DNA of 64,000 nucleotides from Cyanobacteriota bacterium (lineage in GTDB: Bacteria > Cyanobacteriota > Cyanobacteriia > Cyanobacteriales > Microcoleaceae), in assembly GCA_034189005.1 (NCBI GenBank), contig JAXHVR010000009.1:11413-75412 (forward strand), written 5' to 3'; not shown here. The text below is the continuation of a report on this DNA, generated by a model with database tools.

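Follow-up and report, generated by a model that had tools for sequence, protein, structure and literature searches.

The 1559-aa protein, the giant encoded with the PPIase-ABC-HlyD T1SS, carries a stretch (residues 272-793, covering the GT4 and the start of the GT2 domain) that is ~60% identical to Nostocales/Stigonematales proteins in comparison loci L024-L039. The matching proteins run on into GT2 modules resembling those of the 2077-aa protein, the giant of the Wzm/Wzt polysaccharide pathway, and in several of these loci (e.g., L024, L028, L029, L032 and L033) they are encoded <10 kb from wzm/wzt. By these alignments and gene neighborhoods, the same catalytic modules are reshuffled between polysaccharide-type and T1SS-linked giants. 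The 2077-aa protein also varies in the length of its coiled coil, which ranges from 181 to 512 aa in the family (120 homologs listed, P0241-P0360). Within one set of closely related proteins, the Trichodesmium-named homologs among them, 11 different lengths occur (343, 364, 371 and so on to 434 aa), every one of them divisible by seven, and the variants in Microcoleus differ in steps of exactly 7 aa. This pattern looks like the natural tuning, in heptad steps, of a putative molecular ruler.

Protein length is variable in the secretion apparatus as well. HlyD is 725 aa long and its ~300 extra residues form a repetitive coiled coil, encoded in part by 42-nt repeats. Its homologs have ~726 aa in Trichodesmium and ~666 aa in loci of the Microcoleus type, against 491 aa in the GC-rich locus L102; the long form is possibly adapted to a thick cell wall. 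Two further genes may differ in structure among the comparison loci. The homolog of the 590-aa polytopic membrane protein in L017 (‘Phorm 6’) appeared joined to the downstream small GT2 as a single 836-aa ORF (19234-21741), but a slightly shifted end coordinate met a stop codon; the two genes may be fused, or the cause may be a frameshift or an error in the coordinates. In the Trichodesmium-type contig L044, rmlC was called as three short fragments and tblastn gave two partial copies of it (13879-14990), beside an intact rmlD; rmlC may have decayed to a pseudogene there or have been duplicated.

Among the RTX-linked deep-core genes, the PF12000 GT4 is 83-95% identical between genera, where its flanking genes reach only 59-80%; we found no solved relative for its N-terminal PF12000 half. 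The 302-aa protein belongs to a large family (654 clusters at 50% identity) for which neither a Pfam model nor a solved structure was found. Its invariant residues are H9, R29, E126, D127, D133, K139, R157, D172 and H270, and in other organisms the family is fused to FkbM-type and other methyltransferases, PF12000 GT4s and TPR repeats.

The block between the 2077-aa gene and the next methyltransferase is a lineage-specific insertion of mixed content (see table), and no BrnT partner was found for its BrnA-like antitoxin ORF. Because the T1SS ABC protein, like the inserted MscS channel, has a cNMP domain, control of secretion by cAMP is conceivable, but the block is absent from Okeania and from locus L053. 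The island also holds an orphan immunity-protein gene, with no toxin gene found nearby, that is missing at the corresponding Trichodesmium position. Downstream, DUF2330 and malic enzyme genes separate the island from a rimP-nusA-ylxR-infB operon of the standard type; the right border is therefore at ~47.4 kb.

Coordinates of genes, inserted elements and repeats in the window
Feature	Position	Remark
2077-aa gene	4662-10895	
Insertion block	10868-16293	
BrnA-like antitoxin ORF	in 10868-16293	overlaps 3' end of 2077-aa gene
dCache-HAMP adenylate cyclase	in 10868-16293	
MscS channel	in 10868-16293	with cNMP domain
PBP-like protein	in 10868-16293	
PF12000 GT4	20433-21695	
302-aa protein	24720-25628 (-)	
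HlyD	37060-39237	
42-nt repeats	38083-38246	within HlyD coiled coil
Orphan Imm30 gene	41550-42008	Imm30 match 5e-35
rimP-nusA-ylxR-infB	53094-59562	
Heptanucleotide arrays, first six	1680-1742, 1838-1900, 3273-3335, 4597-4673, 14995-15057, 16281-16343	
Heptanucleotide arrays, last six	24684-24732, 32896-32972, 36922-37051, 39697-39745, 42927-42975, 46280-46342	
Palindromic element, in ORFs	9692-9737, 16991-17036, 30073-30118, 45622-45667	2077-aa, 403-aa, 1559-aa, 592-aa genes
Palindromic element, in spacers	15077-15122, 24617-24662, 39592-39637, 47810-47855	
Hairpin repeat, two copies	8063-8143	within 2077-aa gene
Hairpin repeat, five copies	44371-44522	rmlD/592-aa gene spacer

Three further kinds of repeats occur in the window. 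The palindromic element AGAAACCCGGTTTCT..AGAAACCGGGTTTCT occurs in eight copies, half of them within ORFs and half in spacers, and the reading frame is kept in all four ORFs that hold it; the element resembles a small mobile repeat of the dispersed kind. The hairpin repeat GAACAGGCGTCTCGCCTGTTC is present as two perfect 39-nt copies in the 2077-aa gene, where it gives rise to an in-frame 14-aa duplication, and as five further copies in one spacer. Finally, tandem heptanucleotide arrays (AATTAAT, AACAATT or AACAACT, 5-9 units) occupy most intergenic spacers of the island and often stop directly at a start codon, as in wzt, the 2077-aa gene, the PPIase gene, HlyD and the 590-aa gene. These arrays, which are similar to the STRR repeats of filamentous cyanobacteria, may act in gene expression or in phase variation.
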